NCBI GenBank assembly: GCA_035761085.1
Contig: DASTRT010000089.1
Coordinates: 1-25,223 of the forward strand
Length of the DNA: 25,223 nt
Direction of reading: 5' to 3'
Source of the DNA: Methylophilaceae bacterium
Lineage (GTDB): Bacteria > Pseudomonadota > Gammaproteobacteria > Burkholderiales > Methylophilaceae
Under the pieces are notes generated by a model. That model was not told the origin of the DNA, searched no databases, and was given only the letters and a program-made list of their open reading frames with translations. Position numbers and translations under genes: made by a program. This document shows, in pieces, positions 12,965 to 19,521 of the stretch (positions are counted from its first letter, which is position 1; every line of letters begins with the position of its first letter).

Positions 12965-13972
12965 CTAACGGCGGTAGAACGACTGGTACCAGTCCACAAA
13001 ACGTGCGATGCCGGTCTCGATGGAGGTTGCGGGCTTGAAGCCGACATCTCGCATGAGGTCATCGACATCGGCAAACGTCGCCGGTACATCGCCAGGCTGC
13101 ATGGGCAGGTAATTCTTCACCGCAGGCTTGCCCAGATTTTGCTCCAGCAGCGAGATCAGCTGCATCAGCGGCACCGGCGCGCTATTGCCGATGTTGTAGA
13201 TCTTGTAAGGCGCGCGCGAACTGCCGGGATCGGGATGGTCTCCACTCCAATGCGGGTTTCCTTGCGGCACGCGGTCGAGCACGCGCAACACGCCCTCGAC
13301 GATGTCGTCGATGTAGGTGAAATCGCGCTGCATCTCGCCGTGGTTGAACACATCAATTGGGCGCCCTTCCATGATCGCCTTGGCGAAAAGGAAATACGCC
13401 ATGTCCGGGCGCCCCCATGGACCGTAGACGGTGAAGAAGCGCAGCCCGGTGACCGGCAGCCGGTAGAGATGGCTGTAGCTATGCGCCATCAGCTCATTGG
13501 CCTTCTTGGTGGCGGCGTACAGACTCAGCGGATGGTCGACATTGTCGTGTACCGAGAAGGGCATCTTGCTGTTGGCGCCGTAGACCGAGCTCGACGAGGC
13601 AAAGACCAGATGCTCGACCTCATTATGGCGGCAGCCTTCCAGAATGTTGAGAAACCCCTGTAGGTTGGAATCTGCATAAGCTTGCGGATTAACCAGCGAA
13701 TAGCGCACGCCGGCCTGCGCCGCAAGATGGACGACGCGTTGCGGACGATGCTCGGCAAACAGGCGCTGCATGGTTTCGCGGTCATGCACATCGGCACGGA
13801 TATTGGTAAACAGGGGACGATCCTTGATCCGGGCCAGGCGAGCCTCTTTCAGGCGCACATCGTAATAATCGTTGAGGTTATCCACGCCGATGACGGTATC
13901 GCCGCGTTCCAGCAGGCGCTGTGCGAGGAAATTGCCGATAAATCCGGCAGTGCCGGTAACAAGTATTTTCAT
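12965..13972 (-). CDS. NAD-dependent epimerase, UDP-glucuronate 4-epimerase type (LpsL/WbnF/CapI-like)
   Basis: [48 protein letters not shown] and [10 protein letters not shown]. The start is the ATG at 13972. Confidence 0.9.
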
Positions 13973-13988: not shown

Positions 13989-15431
13989 TCAGCTTGTGCC
14001 CTGGGCCGCAGGGCATGCAGTGCCAAGACCGTACACCGTCAGGGCTTTACGCGATTTCAGGTAAGGGTTGAATTCCACGATCGTACAATTTACAGAAAGC
14101 GCAGGCGCCGCTTTCGCGTCATGTTCCACCAGCAGGTAAGCCGAGGTTCCGCGTTTCGAGAGCTGCTGCAACGCCGCATCGTCCAACAGCGGAATATTCT
14201 GACCGGCGTAATACAGAAGCCGTTCGTCCAGATGTCGATAGCCATACAGCGGCAATTCGCGATGTGCCTGGTGCCAGGTCTGGAATCCCTGCAAGGCGAC
14301 ATAACGATAATCGAACACCCGCGCTTCAGCCACGGCATAGAAGGCACCATATCCGGCGAGAAGCAGAAAGCTCAGGGCCATGAGCACGCGTTGCCAGCGC
14401 GCTTGCACCGCTTCACACACTTCGGCCAGCCGCTTGCCGAGCAGGATGGCAATCCAGGGATAAGTAGGCAGCAGGTACTTGGCATGCTTGTCACTGAAAA
14501 GCGTGTACAGCACGAACGGCAGTGCAATCGCCAGCACCACAGGCAGCAGTGTTGTGGACGCCTGCCGCCATCTGCGCCAGGTCGCCACGGGAGCCACAAA
14601 CAACAGCAGACTGGCCGGGAAAAAGTCCGACAGATACCACAGGAAATAATTGTAGAAGGGCTCTCCGGCATGCCCGTACATCTTGGCCAGCATGTCGTGC
14701 CGCACGGTGGTGCGCCAAATGTCCATGCCCTCCTGCCAGGTCACGGCGAAAAACCACGATCCGCCGACTGCCACAAATATCAGCCAGCCGAGCGGGTCGC
14801 GCAGTGCCTGCCAGGTCCGCGTATCACGACGGAAGAATGCCAGCACCAGCAACGGCAGCGTGACAAAAATCAGCACCAGCGGACCCTTGGTCAACACCCC
14901 CAGGCCCAGCAGGAAATAGCTCAGCCACAGCCAATAACGCCTGCCCTCCTCCAGCACGTAATGCAGCGCCGCCAGCAGCGAGGCGAAGCACAGGGTGGCA
15001 AGCAGCATCTCGATCTCGGCACGCCGGGCGAACAGGGCAAAGCTGGCATTGGCCAGCAGCAACTGCAAGGTAAACAGGGCCGCCCAAATGCCAAAGTGGC
15101 GATGCGCGAAGCGGTAGGCGAGTATGGCAGTCACCGCTGCCGCCATCGCTGAAGGCAGACGCAGCGTCCATTCATTGACCGAGCCGGCCACCAGCGAGGC
15201 GCTGGCTTCCAGCCAGTAGAACAGCGGAGGTTTGGTCAGGTAGAGCTCGCCATTGAGACGCGGCAGCAACCAGTCACCGCTAGTGAACATGGAAGCGGTG
15301 GACAGTGCACGACGCGCCTCATTGTAGGAAAGCAAGGGGATGCTGCCCAGCCCCCATAGCAGCAGGATGGCGGCTAACAGCACGCTGGCGACGAGAAGGA
15401 TGCGGTAGGTTTTCAACTGCTCAGTGGGCAT
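13989..15431 (-). CDS. ArnT/GT83-like (GT-C fold) polyprenyl-phosphate-sugar transferase, paralog 1
   Basis: Polytopic membrane protein with [41 protein letters not shown] and KYLLPTYP. Confidence 0.88.
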
Positions 15432-16404
15432 GGGTTTGTTTCAAGCAGCTTTCTACCCCGGAAGTGCAATTTCTGTCCATATGGAATGCAGCCTGCAGAT
15501 GGTCGCCGGAATCCAGGTAGCTGATGTTGACACCGGCCGCATCCAGCGCAACTCGCACAAACCCATGCTCGGCAGCCGAAAATCGCAGGTCGGAAGCTCC
15601 CGTTTTCACGGCATAGAGCTTCCCTCCGCCGCCACCGCTGACGACATGAATGGGCTCGCCCTCGCGCACAATCAACTGCTGGTTGTGGTCATGCGCAGCA
15701 ATATAAAGATCGACATTGGCGGCCTGCATGGCAGAGATCAAGGGATTGTTTGCGCCCTCGCCTTCCTGATGGTGCTTGCCGTAAGTGCGGATAGCGTGGT
15801 GAGCGATCACGATTTTCCAGATAGGGTGATTGCCCTGTGAAAACTGTTGCTTGAGATATTCGGCCTCGCCACGGGGATCCTGATTGGTATCGAGAAACAC
15901 GATCTGCACCAAAGGCTGCCCGTTCACGCGGCCGAAAACCTCACTGTAATGCCGTCCCGGCATGCGCCAGCGGTTGGAGCCCAGGTGACGGCTGGCATAA
16001 TCCAACTCGGCTTGTACCGAACCCGGGTAATCGTGGTTGCCCAATACGGCGTAAAAGGGAATGGCATCGAGATATTTACCCGTGTACATGTGCTCGAATG
16101 CACGCATCCAGGCTGACGACTCCGTGGTCATATTGTCTTCGATATAGAAGTTGTCGCCCAGCAGCACGGTGAAATCCAGCCCGCCATCCTTTTGCGCCTG
16201 CGTCTCCATGGCGCCGGCCACCGCTCTCTGTTCGCTATTCGCCTTGCCCTGGTCACCGAGCGCGTAGAACGTAATGTGCGTGGTTTCATCAGGAGAGGAA
16301 GGAATGCGCGGCAGGTAATCATTGAAGCCGCGATAAAAGCCAAGGGCCACGATGACCAGCAAGGCCGGCAGGATAAGTTTGACGAGGCGGGATTTTTTCA
16401 GCAT
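15421..16404 (-). CDS. Membrane-anchored/exported calcineurin-like metallophosphoesterase, purple acid phosphatase type
   Basis: N-terminal hydrophobic helix. All five PAP-type motifs are present: GDQG, GDNFY, GNHD, VIAHH and AHDH (variant of GHxH). Confidence 0.88.
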   Translation of the reverse strand: MLKKSRLVKLILPALLVIVALGFYRGFNDYLPRIPSSPDETTHITFYALGDQGKANSEQRAVAGAMETQAQKDGGLDFTVLLGDNFYIEDNMTTESSAWMRAFEHMYTGKYLDAIPFYAVLGNHDYPGSVQAELDYASRHLGSNRWRMPGRHYSEVFGRVNGQPLVQIVFLDTNQDPRGEAEYLKQQFSQGNHPIWKIVIAHHAIRTYGKHHQEGEGANNPLISAMQAANVDLYIAAHDHNQQLIVREGEPIHVVSGGGGGKLYAVKTGASDLRFSAAEHGFVRVALDAAGVNISYLDSGDHLQAAFHMDRNCTSGVESCLKQTHAH

Positions 16405-16419
16405 AGCGTCATCATTGGC

Positions 16420-18150
16420 CTAATGCCCGGAGGTTAACGGCCTGCTGCCGGGGCGACCGCAATTGGCAGGGTGAGCGCTGCACCAGGTTTCCCACTGCGC
16501 GTTATCGACCACACCTACCTGCATCTTCAGGTAATCCTGCAGAAACTCCAGATCGAGGCCGTCCAGTGGGTTCTTGCGGTTGAAATAGATCACCGCCCGA
16601 CCTTCCGGATGCTCGGCGAACCATTGAGAAAGATGCGGTCGGTCCAGCACTTGCGGCGATTGCTGCAGACGGCCGATGAAATCGTAGATACCGGGGTACG
16701 GACCAGCATGCGCCAGCGGTACGCCGATCTGCTCCAGATGCTCGAGATGATGGGCAATAGGCCGCACATCATAGGCCGTACCCGCAGCGCGAATAACGCC
16801 CAGATGAATGACTCCAGCCAGCAGCATGCTGACCAGCGCCAGCGCCCACAGCTTGGCCTGCAACCGGTTACGGAAACCGAACCACAGGCCCGCACTGCCT
16901 GCAATCAGAAGCAAAGGTGTCCAGGTAGGGATATGCACGACCCAGGCCGTGGCCGGATGGTCTTCTACCCATGCAGGAGGATGCAGCAGCAGGATGGCGA
17001 GTCCAACGATCACCAGCAGTACCGGCAGACCCTGTCGATGCTGCACCTTCGGCGTTTCTTGCAGCACACGGGCGGCAAGTAAAGCAAATGCCGGCAGCAG
17101 CGGCAGCAGATAATGGATCTGCTTGCCGCTGACCAGTGAAAACAGTACAAACGTCGACCCCAGCCAGCTCAGGCAAAACCGCGTGCCTTCATCCAGACCG
17201 TTTTTGCGCATGCTGACGGCAGCTTTCCAAAGCGCCCCCCACAGCAGCCACGGGAAGAACAGGATGGGCAGCAGCGGCAGATACCACCAGACCTCGCGCT
17301 GGTGCGCAAAGGCGTTCACCAGGCGATGGGCGCTCTGTCCCCATAGAATCGCCTGTGCGTAGTGCTCACCGCCATGCAGTGCGGCCGGGATCGCCCACAA
17401 CAGGGCGAGCGAAATACCGATAGCCGAAGCAGCGCCCGCACCGGCATACCAATAGCGCCAGTTCATGGCCCTGCTGCGCAACCACCAGGGTGCCAGCAGC
17501 ATGGCCGGCAGCACATGCAGGAATATGGCCGGGCCTTTGGCCAGCAGGCCGCCGGCAATGGCCATGGCAAACAAGGCCCAACCGGCTCGGATGCGATCTT
17601 GCATGGCCATAACGAGACCCAGCATGCCGAGCAGCGTAAACAAGGCCAGCAGCATGTCGAACATGACGGCAGTTCCGAGTGCCGCCCACAAGGCGGTGCC
17701 GGAGAGCATCAATGCCGCGTGCATCGGGGTTTGTTGCAGCTGCGGCCACAGGCGGCGAGCCAGCAGCATGATAAGCCAGGCATTTCCCAAAGCGACGAGA
17801 CAGGTCAGCAGGCGCGGCCACCAGTCACTGACGCCGAAGACGCTCCACCCCAGATTGATCAGCCAGAACAGCAAGGGCGGTTTGTCGCTGTAGGGCATGC
17901 CATTGAGCATGGGCACCAGGAAATCGCCGCTGAGATGCATGTTCCAGGCGACGGTCACGTAGCGCGTTTCGTCCACCGGGATAAAGGAGCGGCCGAACAG
18001 CTCAATCAAGGCGAGCAGCAGCCAGATCGAAGCCAGAACCAGGAATTGCCAGTTGAACAGGCGTTGCGATTGGATGCCGGCAAATGTTCTGCCGCCGAGG
18101 ACGGCGGGTTCGGATATGACGTGCGGCTTGGTTAGCGTGTTAGCTGCCAT
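16420..18150 (-). CDS. ArnT/GT83-like polyprenyl-phosphate-sugar transferase, paralog 2
   Basis: PVDETRY, PMLNGMPYSDKPPLLFW, VMFDMLL, LAKGP and SGKQIHYLLPL motifs; many TM helices. Confidence 0.9.
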   Translation of the reverse strand: MAANTLTKPHVISEPAVLGGRTFAGIQSQRLFNWQFLVLASIWLLLALIELFGRSFIPVDETRYVTVAWNMHLSGDFLVPMLNGMPYSDKPPLLFWLINLGWSVFGVSDWWPRLLTCLVALGNAWLIMLLARRLWPQLQQTPMHAALMLSGTALWAALGTAVMFDMLLALFTLLGMLGLVMAMQDRIRAGWALFAMAIAGGLLAKGPAIFLHVLPAMLLAPWWLRSRAMNWRYWYAGAGAASAIGISLALLWAIPAALHGGEHYAQAILWGQSAHRLVNAFAHQREVWWYLPLLPILFFPWLLWGALWKAAVSMRKNGLDEGTRFCLSWLGSTFVLFSLVSGKQIHYLLPLLPAFALLAARVLQETPKVQHRQGLPVLLVIVGLAILLLHPPAWVEDHPATAWVVHIPTWTPLLLIAGSAGLWFGFRNRLQAKLWALALVSMLLAGVIHLGVIRAAGTAYDVRPIAHHLEHLEQIGVPLAHAGPYPGIYDFIGRLQQSPQVLDRPHLSQWFAEHPEGRAVIYFNRKNPLDGLDLEFLQDYLKMQVGVVDNAQWETWCSAHPANCGRPGSRPLTSGH

Positions 18151-18505
18151 GTTCCAGCATTTCCGTTGTACGACGGGCCTGTTCGCGCCGGATCAGCATC
18201 AGGTTGCGGGTGTAGACGATAGTGCCGGGGAGCTGCCCCAGGATGATGACCGGCTCGGCATTACGAATGCCGTAGGCCAGCACGGTGAGCCCGCCGATCA
18301 GCGACAGATACCAGAAGCTCACAGGAATGACGCTTTTCTGGTGGCGCTCGCTGTGTATCCATTGCACGATGAAGCGCATCATGAACATGGTCTGACCCAG
18401 CAGGCCAATCACCAGCCAGACGATATCCACCGAACCCAGGCCGGCGAGGTAATCCTGCCAGCGATGCGCGAGATGGTTCAGGTAAAAGATGAAACTGTGG
18501 TGCAT
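18140..18505 (-). CDS. Lipid-A-disaccharide synthase N-terminal domain (LAB_N) small membrane protein
   Basis: IGLLGQTMFMMRFIVQWIHSER...SVIPVSFWYLSLIGG...EPVIILGQ...YTRNL is the LAB_N pattern, with three TM segments. Confidence 0.88.
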   Translation of the reverse strand: MHHSFIFYLNHLAHRWQDYLAGLGSVDIVWLVIGLLGQTMFMMRFIVQWIHSERHQKSVIPVSFWYLSLIGGLTVLAYGIRNAEPVIILGQLPGTIVYTRNLMLIRREQARRTTEMLEHGS

Positions 18506-19234
18506 TTAGTCTTCCCTGACTTGTGGTTGTTTTGCGCGCCGCAGCAGCCAGGCGACGCCGAACAGGTCGACGATGCCGACCAGCAGGCGATCGATGGTGC
18601 CGTAATTGGACTTGCCACGTTCACGCGGGCGGTGGTTGACGGGTATTGAGCGGATCTTGCCGCCGCTGCGTAATACCAGCGCCGGCAGGAAGCGATGCAT
18701 GTGGTCGAAATATGGCAGATCAAGGAAAACATCGCGCCGTATCAGCTTGAGGCCGCAGCCGGTGTCAGGCGTGCTGTCCTTCAGCAGGCGGGAGCGCACG
18801 CCATTGGCGATGACGGAGGAAACGCGCTTGATCCAGCTGTCGCGCCGCGCATGGCGCCGGTTACCACCGACCATGACGACGCCCTCTTCCAGCCCGGCGA
18901 TCAGTTTGGGGATATCGGCCGGATCGTTCTGGCCGTCGCCATCCAGCGTGGCGATCCAGTCACCGCGCGCTGCCTTGACGCCGCTACGCACCGCGGTACT
19001 CTGGCCACAGCTTCTGGCGTGGTGCAGCACGCGCAACTGCGGATAGCGTGCTTTTGCCTCGAGCAGGACTTGAGCCGTGGCATCCGTACTGCCGTCGTCG
19101 ACATAGACGATCTCGTGCTGAACCACGCCTGACAATGCGGCATGAATTTCTGAAATAAGGGGTTCGATGTTGCCTTCTTCATTCCTGACAGGAACGACGA
19201 CGGAAAGCAGTGTAATGGTGGGGTTCACCGTCAT
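18506..19234 (-). CDS. GT2 polyprenol-phosphate glycosyltransferase (ArnC/RgtE/DPM1-like)
   Basis: SVVVPVRNEEGNI, YVDDGSTD, ATLDGDGQNDP, DTGCGLK and FDHMHRFLP. Its stop codon directly abuts the LAB_N ATG. Confidence 0.92.
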   Translation of the reverse strand: MTVNPTITLLSVVVPVRNEEGNIEPLISEIHAALSGVVQHEIVYVDDGSTDATAQVLLEAKARYPQLRVLHHARSCGQSTAVRSGVKAARGDWIATLDGDGQNDPADIPKLIAGLEEGVVMVGGNRRHARRDSWIKRVSSVIANGVRSRLLKDSTPDTGCGLKLIRRDVFLDLPYFDHMHRFLPALVLRSGGKIRSIPVNHRPRERGKSNYGTIDRLLVGIVDLFGVAWLLRRAKQPQVRED

Positions 19235-19310
19235 GAATGGTCAGCCTTTGTTCTGGAGCGCAATCTTCGAGCCCTGGTATTGGTGGCGGGAGCAATATTC
19301 AGGCCTATGC

Positions 19311-19326
19311 AGCACGAAACATGCCA
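19311..19326 (-). promoter_or_regulatory. Possible sigma54 -24/-12 promoter
   Basis: The minus strand reads TGGCATG-TTTC-GTGCT against consensus TGGCACG-N4-TTGCW, with GG and GC correctly spaced and two mismatches. Confidence 0.3.
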
Positions 19327-19410
19327 TGCTTGGTACGCGTTAGTACACCTGACCGAAGGACTGGCTTCTTTGATAAAGATCAAACAGTTGCGTAAAAGCA
19401 GGTGGGCAAG

Positions 19411-19444
19411 AGTCTAAAAGGCTTGCATTACAATTTGCTTACAT
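19411..19444 (-). promoter_or_regulatory. Pho-box-like direct repeat plus -10 hexamer upstream of the glycosylation operon
   Basis: The minus strand reads ATGTAAG-CAAA-TTGTAAT (19444-19427, 11-bp period), then a 10-nt spacer, then TAGACT (19416-19411). This is the geometry of PhoB-activated promoters such as phoA. Confidence 0.6.
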
Positions 19445-19521
19445 AGTGCAAATTTTGCATGCAACAGCATGCATAACCCGCAAAAGTTGCAAGTTACGCA
19501 GCAAAGGAGCAGGAAGCGGGA

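Follow-up and report, generated by a model that had tools for sequence, protein, structure and literature searches.

A purple acid phosphatase-type enzyme encoded between ArnT-like glycosyltransferases: a probable lipopolysaccharide phosphatase of an undescribed kind

What does a purple acid phosphatase (PAP) do between two ArnT-like glycosyltransferases? This question is raised by a contig of 25,223 nucleotides from a Methylophilaceae bacterium (GenBank assembly GCA_035761085.1, contig DASTRT010000089.1; contig C89 in our numbering), the whole of which is referred to here as the window. The source assembly spans 2.0 Mb in 402 contigs and is estimated to be 95% complete. On the minus strand of the window, an operon of six genes runs head to tail, i.e., a family 2 glycosyltransferase (GT2), a small membrane protein (LAB_N), a GT-C glycosyltransferase of 576 amino acids, the phosphatase, a second GT-C glycosyltransferase of 480 amino acids, and an epimerase of the short-chain dehydrogenase/reductase (SDR) family. 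An earlier reading of the window, hereafter the original prediction, regarded the phosphatase as occupying a place where a lipid A phosphatase of the LpxE or LpxF type would be expected. We analyzed the protein, its operon, and related loci in other genomes, and conclude that this enzyme is probably an undescribed kind of lipopolysaccharide (LPS) phosphatase.

The phosphatase (P0001; positions 15421–16404, minus strand; 327 amino acids) is a metallophosphoesterase resembling the PAPs of the ACP5/TRAP type. Homologues at 88, 74, and 65% identity, together with thousands that are more distant, indicate that its open reading frame (ORF) is a real conserved gene. The only Pfam match of the protein is Metallophos (PF00149), with 47.3 bits against a gathering threshold of 21.5, and no NCBIfam model matched P0001. 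Among proteins of solved structure, ACP5 from rat, human, and pig ranks highest by sequence (E about 1e-17; 22–26% identity), and the GDxG, GDNFY, GNHD, and GHDH-type blocks align with the motifs of rat ACP5. The PAP motif set (GDxG, GDxxY, GNHD, a histidine, and GHxH) is complete, with alanine here in the place of the canonical last glycine. In an alignment with 20 homologues that are 38–73% identical to the phosphatase, all seven metal ligands (D51, D84, Y87, N123, H202, H238, and H240) are invariant; these include the tyrosine of GDxxY that had been pointed out from the motif. The catalytic domain spans about residues 43–310 (15475–16278, minus strand) and also holds the second-sphere residues H124 and H211, of which H124 is invariant across the 20 homologues and the second-sphere histidine is invariant or nearly so. 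The sole cysteines, C313 and C320, are invariant in the same alignment; this C313-x6-C320 pair (15445–15468, minus strand) would form a periplasmic disulfide that stabilizes the C-terminal loop.

The predicted structure agrees with this assignment. An AlphaFold2 model built on the 20-homologue alignment reached a predicted local distance difference test (pLDDT) score of 86.7 and a predicted template modeling (pTM) score of 0.85, and consists of a single beta-alpha-beta-alpha-beta sandwich of about 35 kDa without the N-terminal domain of plant PAPs. In a fold comparison, ACP5 structures come first (E about 1e-23; template modeling [TM] score 0.72–0.79) and plant PAPs second; the top nine matches in the PDB comprise eight ACP5 structures and the ACP5-like protein GAP50 (TM 0.72–0.82). 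Judged by this modeled fold and active site, the phosphatase belongs with the ACP5-type PAPs and falls outside the PAP2 family of LpxE and LpxF. Metallophos is the only domain detected in P0001, the PAP2 domain (PF01569) being absent, and with one hydrophobic segment its topology is not polytopic.

The catalytic domain is predicted to face the periplasm. Residues 5–23 (16336–16392, minus strand) form the only hydrophobic segment of the protein (Kyte-Doolittle mean 2.08), follow four lysine or arginine residues, and lie within a modeled helix (residues 3–27); a Kyte-Doolittle search of the phosphatase found no second segment. An N-terminal hydrophobic segment is present in all 20 aligned homologues, often with 17–22 residues. 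Because the hydrophobic stretches of the homologues are longer, an uncleaved anchor is favored over a cleaved signal peptide, and since the N-terminus contains no cysteine, the phosphatase is not a lipoprotein. The predicted arrangement is a signal anchor of N-in/C-out topology, with the catalytic domain on the periplasmic side; a cleaved signal peptide, the alternative, would likewise export the domain. Motifs, fold, and export signals together support the original prediction of a PAP-type metallophosphoesterase that carries an N-terminal membrane anchor or signal and faces the periplasm.

The phosphatase gene is tightly packed between the two GT-C genes. The TAG codon of the 576-residue GT-C (16422–16420) ends 15 nucleotides upstream of the phosphatase ATG, and the phosphatase TGA (15423–15421) falls within the first codons of the 480-residue GT-C, the ATG of which is at 15431–15429. 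Reading the junctions confirmed this 11-nucleotide overlap as well as the coordinates and gene order given earlier. Through the overlap, the phosphatase and the 480-residue GT-C are predicted to be translationally coupled.

We then asked whether this association recurs in other genomes. A pattern scan that covered a single genome for each GTDB species recovered 393 stretches that encode relatives, and the closest relatives of this locus were uncultured Methylophilaceae. The best 80 loci were studied with flanks of up to 9 kb; neighbors were clustered by similarity and annotated by Pfam and NCBIfam, and counts per locus are based on the 79 beta-/gammaproteobacterial loci in which tblastn re-found the phosphatase gene. 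Handles beginning with L and G denote loci and genomes, respectively. Of the 79 loci, 40 have a GT-C gene of the ArnT/PMT type within 300 bp of the phosphatase, and at a distance of up to 3 kb the number rises to 45. Given that there are four PMT_2 genes in about 2 Mb of this genome, chance would account for such adjacency in well under 1% of cases; the link between the phosphatase and ArnT-like GT-C genes is far beyond chance. The partner GT-C proteins fall into at least five well-separated clades, with the two genes in co-directional, upstream, and divergent orders. One of these clades is true ArnT (694 bits; cut-off 567), which is found in the L064-type order PmrG-ArnT-phosphatase. In the phosphatase tree, all but one of the 12 members of the window's clade have a GT-C neighbor, as does the whole Pseudomonas nitroreducens clade, whereas some Pseudomonas sublineages seem to have lost this adjacency.

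The wider neighborhood also points to the cell envelope. At least one LPS-modification gene (PmrG, PAP2 lipid-A-phosphatase-like, EptA/CptA, or GT2/LAB_N) lies within 3 kb of the phosphatase in 59 of 79 loci. A PmrG-type LPS core heptose(II)-phosphate phosphatase is encoded within that distance in 20 loci (218.6 bits for the annotated representative of L064, against a cut-off of 170), and a PAP2 gene in 21; the latter match the models 'PAP2 family lipid A phosphatase' and LpxF best, with scores below the cut-offs. Several loci have EptA or CptA (above cut-offs), YejM-like sulfatase-family enzymes, or OmpR-type two-component systems nearby. The fullest island, that of Methylotenera mobilis 13 (L007), begins with EptA and continues with UDP-glucose 6-dehydrogenase (Ugd), epimerase, phosphatase, GT-C, GT2, LAB_N, PAP2, and CptA.

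This genomic context, i.e., the GT-C adjacency and the LPS-modification neighbors, gives good support to a role on LPS phosphate, and we consider it likely that the substrate is an LPS-linked phosphate of some kind. The more specific reading that we favor, at a probability of about one half, is that the phosphatase clears the 1- or 4'-phosphate of lipid A for the GT-C enzyme; the substrate, the position, the order of the steps, and the sugar are all what we infer. An active binuclear-metal phosphomonoesterase of the ACP5/TRAP type, held on the inner membrane by one N-terminal helix, would hydrolyze an LPS phosphomonoester with its catalytic domain at the periplasmic face after flipping by MsbA. 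Removal of the 1- or 4'-phosphate would free a hydroxyl for the translationally coupled ArnT-like GT-C to glycosylate. The sugar would be supplied by the remaining genes of the operon: the epimerase would convert UDP-glucuronic acid (UDP-GlcA) to UDP-galacturonic acid (UDP-GalA), the GT2 with LAB_N would load galacturonic acid (GalA) onto polyprenyl phosphate, and the GT-C enzymes would transfer it at the periplasmic face. A PAP2 enzyme of the cluster, where present, would serve the other lipid A position. We suggest only tentatively, and with more doubt than confidence, that the phosphatase and GT-C constitute a two-gene cassette that has spread horizontally among beta-/gammaproteobacteria and provides a third, non-homologous class of lipid A phosphatase. 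If true, a PAP-fold class could explain lipid A dephosphorylation where no LpxE/LpxF fits the chemistry.

Several findings qualify the idea that the phosphatase replaces LpxE or LpxF, and some of them weigh against the proposal that it prepares lipid A for the GT-C enzyme. The first concerns PAP2 enzymes. The original prediction that none is encoded holds for the window but not for the genome: one PAP2 match exists in the whole assembly, on contig C135 (G000:C135; L001:1070-2745; 186 amino acids), in the arrangement glmM-PAP2-dgkA-GT4. This protein is orthologous (61–67% identity) to the PAP2 beside glmM in Methylotenera and Methylophilus, where the order of glmM, PAP2, and GT4 was re-found and dgkA was undetected. 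Its best model is undecaprenyl-diphosphatase, with LpxE reaching 25.8 bits only, and BacA is also encoded in this genome. The C135 PAP2 is probably a housekeeping enzyme rather than a lipid A phosphatase, and with a DgkA-type kinase gene as its neighbor, a part in the recycling of carrier lipid or lipid phosphate is suggested. A role on lipid A may nevertheless exist, since multifunctional LpxE enzymes are known.

In addition, the phosphatase often has a cluster-type, lipid-A-phosphatase-like PAP2 gene beside it. The two occur together in M. mobilis 13, in Methylophilus, in G113, G115, and G060 (twice), in many Pseudomonas, and in L014/L020/L029. As both are often found in one cluster, they are not simple substitutes, and the phosphatase and the cluster PAP2 seem complementary rather than alternative. 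The idea that the phosphatase replaces an expected LpxE or LpxF is not supported as it stands, given that such a PAP2 gene shares its cluster in Methylotenera, Methylophilus, many Pseudomonas, and other loci. The genome of the window is unusual in that it lacks a cluster PAP2 and has the second GT-C in its stead.

Further evidence against a preparation of lipid A for the GT-C enzyme comes from the Methylophilaceae. We sampled 150 other Methylophilaceae genomes and found the phosphatase in six, compared to 25 with orthologues of the 480-residue GT-C (38–58% identity). The phosphatase is absent in about 19 of the 25 that possess the GT-C module. The 16 module loci that were fetched typically read GT2-LAB_N-GT-C-(Ugd)-epimerase, some without one or more of these genes, and none has a phosphatase in the cluster. 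Two genomes with the module and without the phosphatase (G006 and G065; 99% and 96% complete) carry housekeeping-type PAP2 only. Because most sampled Methylophilaceae modules lack it, the phosphatase is accessory and not obligatory for uronate addition. Furthermore, the phosphatase follows true ArnT in four loci, and true ArnT needs a lipid A phosphate as its acceptor. ACP5-type enzymes are also broad-specificity monoesterases. We additionally considered non-orthologous displacement by PAP2, and rejected it: in the Methylophilaceae clusters without the phosphatase, its slot contains no PAP2 and is either empty or occupied by Ugd.

Some of these findings fit with a role in parallel to the GT-C enzymes, which we regard as possible though rather unlikely. 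The phosphatase would then trim another LPS phosphate, i.e., an inner-core heptose or Kdo phosphate (a type of target that PmrG has), the lipid A 1-diphosphate, or a phosphoethanolamine (PEtN) diester, and would not make the GT-C acceptor. It would thereby add to the activities with which the island remodels charge. This would account for its company of PmrG, PAP2, EptA, CptA, YejM-like sulfatase-family genes, and even true ArnT, for its presence alongside PAP2 rather than in its place, and for a GalA module that works without the phosphatase in most relatives. Eukaryotic metallophosphoesterases provide a parallel, with PGAP5 among those that strip ethanolamine-phosphate from a glycolipid. However, the tightest and oldest association of the phosphatase is with GT-C genes and not with PEtN transferases, the predicted translational coupling in the window is likewise with a GT-C, and the ACP5 type with a tyrosine ligand is known as a monoesterase.

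It is improbable that the enzyme is a general phosphate-scavenging acid phosphatase of the periplasm, merely co-regulated with envelope remodeling under conditions such as phosphate limitation. Such a role would suit the broad specificity of ACP5-type enzymes and the name 'acid phosphatase' that some sources give to homologues. It might also be read from the non-coding region upstream of the operon (19235–19521, minus strand), which holds a TGTAA-N6-TGTAA direct repeat with 11-bp spacing at 19428–19443; the window contains one exact match to this pattern and one more with one mismatch. However, a search of 11 related loci did not recover the TGTAA-N6-TGTAA repeat, and no pst/pho phosphate-uptake family is present among the recurring neighbor families annotated, which do not include every neighbor cluster. 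A Pho box, i.e., control by phosphate starvation, was dismissed as unsupported on both counts. The conservation of the membrane anchor and the survival of GT-C adjacency through rearrangement across five GT-C clades also speak against scavenging, as does the shared promoter of the P. nitroreducens type, which carries a TTAAC-N6-TTAAC repeat and not a Pho box.

Promoter repeats differ between the Pseudomonas groups. Three loci of the P. nitroreducens group (L015, L016, and L023) have a conserved GTTAAC-N5-ATTAAC in the 84–115 bp promoter shared by divergent GT-C and phosphatase genes; we take this repeat to resemble PmrA boxes (xTTAAx-N5-xTTAAx). The loci of the P. mandelii group share TGTGAAC-N4-GTGTGATC instead.

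Very unlikely, in our view, is that the phosphatase acts on polyprenyl diphosphate or phospholipid and recycles the carrier lipid of the GT2/GT-C pathway. It does adjoin polyprenyl-phosphate-dependent enzymes, and LpxE-type enzymes with several functions, including action on undecaprenyl diphosphate, are reported (PMC6581854). It is established enzymology, however, that transfer of the ArnT type yields a polyprenyl monophosphate and needs no phosphatase, and the genome already has both BacA and a PAP2 for which undecaprenyl-diphosphatase is the best model. A non-catalytic pseudo-phosphatase that scaffolds the GT-C has a precedent in the PAP-fold pseudoenzyme GAP50, but is scarcely credible with all seven metal ligands invariant in 20 diverse homologues.

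Lipid A phosphates govern outer-membrane stability, cationic-peptide resistance, and innate immune recognition, and every lipid A phosphatase proven so far is, to our knowledge, a PAP2 enzyme. The phosphatase of the window has the fold and size of mammalian ACP5/TRAP (PDB 1qhw, 1ute, 1war, and 2bq8) and of the low-molecular-weight plant PAPs (Arabidopsis PAP3/4/7/8/17), with TM scores of 0.72–0.79. With ACP5 and the plant enzymes it shares the five motifs, the seven ligands including tyrosine, and the second-sphere histidines. Unlike ACP5, it comes from bacteria, carries a membrane anchor at its N-terminus as well as a C-x6-C pair specific to its family, and is encoded within LPS-modification operons. 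The calcineurin-like superfamily to which it belongs also includes LpxH and LpxG, which likewise act on a lipid A precursor; these are cytoplasmic UDP-diacylglucosamine pyrophosphatases without the tyrosine ligand, however, and are not close to the phosphatase by sequence or fold ranking.

In its proposed role, the phosphatase is comparable to LpxE (1-) and LpxF (4'-) of Rhizobium, Francisella, and Helicobacter, which remove phosphate at the periplasmic face before a transferase (RgtF/RgtD or EptA). In rhizobia, LpxE and LpxF act ahead of RgtF and RgtD (PMC9393093). The genomic company is also alike, i.e., GT-C, ArnC-like GT2, and UDP-GlcA epimerase (PMC9393093; PMC7663294). In contrast, LpxE and LpxF are polytopic PAP2 enzymes that are not homologous to the soluble binuclear-metal domain on a single anchor predicted here. 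The logic of the operon would be that of the rhizobial LpsL/RgtE/RgtD-RgtF system, which adds GalA onto LPS (PMC9393093; PMC7663294), with a non-homologous phosphatase. PmrG/Ais offers a second comparison: this member of the histidine phosphatase family is likewise a periplasmic soluble-domain phosphatase that acts on LPS phosphate and is encoded beside arn genes, but it belongs to a different superfamily. The co-occurrence of PmrG with the phosphatase suggests that the two have different targets.

The only precedent that we found for a non-PAP2 phosphatase in lipid A dephosphorylation before GalA addition is CtpA of Caulobacter. This tyrosine-phosphatase homologue is implicated in lipid A dephosphorylation and is needed for wild-type GalA-substituted lipid A; the Caulobacter genome carries an lpxE-like gene and no lpxF (PMC9393093). 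CtpA is a cysteine-based protein tyrosine phosphatase, in contrast to the binuclear-metal enzyme of the window, and its direct substrate is also unproven. Several bacteria in which GalA replaces lipid A phosphates lack a convincing 4'-phosphatase (PMC9393093; PMC7663294), and 'unknown phosphatases' have been postulated for producers of GalA-lipid A (PMC7663294). Our full-text literature searches found no paper linking PAP-type metallophosphoesterases with LPS modification. What would be new here, as judged from genomic context, is that an unrelated fold performs a phosphatase step on LPS or lipid A. A conserved PAP-type family, predicted to be periplasmic, that travels with ArnT-like transferases, PmrG, EptA/CptA, and PAP2 is a concrete candidate for a missing activity. 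If this is true, the ACP5-type fold gains a defined physiological substrate in bacteria, and thousands of genes labeled only 'metallophosphoesterase' could be better annotated.

The two GT-C proteins of the operon are ArnT-like but not ArnT, such that the original prediction of two flanking ArnT genes is only partly upheld. Against the ArnT equivalog model NF009784 (cut-off 567), the 480-residue GT-C (GT83/PMT_2; 13989–15431, minus strand) scores 59.6 bits and the 576-residue GT-C (16420–18150, minus strand) scores 118 bits. Both align with the membrane domain of ArnT (PDB 5ezm) and have Pfam membership in GT-C/PMT_2. The 576-residue protein retains the D-E motif of ArnT and was seen only in the window and its closest relative (L002/L003). 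In the 480-residue protein this motif is N-E (15290–15340, in the first periplasmic loop); wherever Methylophilaceae and Azonexus have the phosphatase gene, an orthologue of the 480-residue GT-C invariably comes after it. Among the GT-C clades that adjoin the phosphatase (L004-L010 and L015-L047), the motif is N-E in Methylophilaceae/Azonexus and T-E in Pseudomonas/Rhodocyclaceae. We speculate that a neutral residue in the place of the aspartate suits an anionic sugar donor.

The other genes of the operon are candidates for a uronate pathway. The ArnC/GtrB-like GT2 (18506–19234, minus strand; 242 amino acids), a polyprenyl-phosphate glycosyltransferase by type, aligns to residues 7–219 only of ArnC and is without its C-terminal membrane helices. 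The LAB_N gene (18140–18505, minus strand; 121 amino acids) begins at the base right after the GT2 stop codon, and the GT2-LAB_N pair is retained in most related Methylophilaceae clusters examined. LAB_N may thus not be a flippase but a partner of GT2, or the membrane part of GT2 encoded separately. The SDR epimerase (12965–13972, minus strand; 335 amino acids from its ATG), a candidate UDP-glucuronate 4-epimerase, finds its PDB matches in 5u4q (E 5e-146) and in the 6zl6/6zla group (E 2e-49). The depositors gave these structures generic names; they are presumably UDP-GlcA 4-epimerases. Ugd is encoded in the same cluster as the epimerase in relatives, and a Ugd-like gene is present elsewhere in this genome. 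The sugar of the operon, as judged from these genes, is probably galacturonic acid.

A single locus of a Methylotenera sp. metagenome-assembled genome (MAG) contains the phosphatase domain in a longer protein. Here, an in-frame ORF of 907 amino acids (L020:8899-11622) joins it to a DUF3413-sulfatase domain (YejM/EptA-like); the two are separate neighboring genes in L014 and L029. Among long proteins carrying the phosphatase domain in a collection of 5.8 billion proteins, no fusion was found, only three single-domain proteins of about 500 amino acids. We set this fusion aside as Rosetta-stone evidence, since it was not replicated in the large collection and is possibly an assembly artefact.

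Two further arrangements were observed around GT-C genes. In Accumulibacter (L066:3136-4296, L048, and L052), a gene of the PF04185 'Phosphoesterase family' (phospholipase C/AcpA-type) adjoins a GT-C of another clade with 573–661 amino acids, and a PAP-type phosphatase is encoded a few kb away; with PF04185, another type of phosphoesterase is seen to accompany GT-C genes. In two Pseudomonas MAGs (L032 and L035), two GT-C genes come after the phosphatase gene, two being the number also present in the window, and one of them is of the T-E type. The second, of 598–612 amino acids, is convergent and groups with the true-ArnT clade, though it was not scored on the ArnT model; after it come PmrG, a gene of the sulfatase family, and a two-component system.

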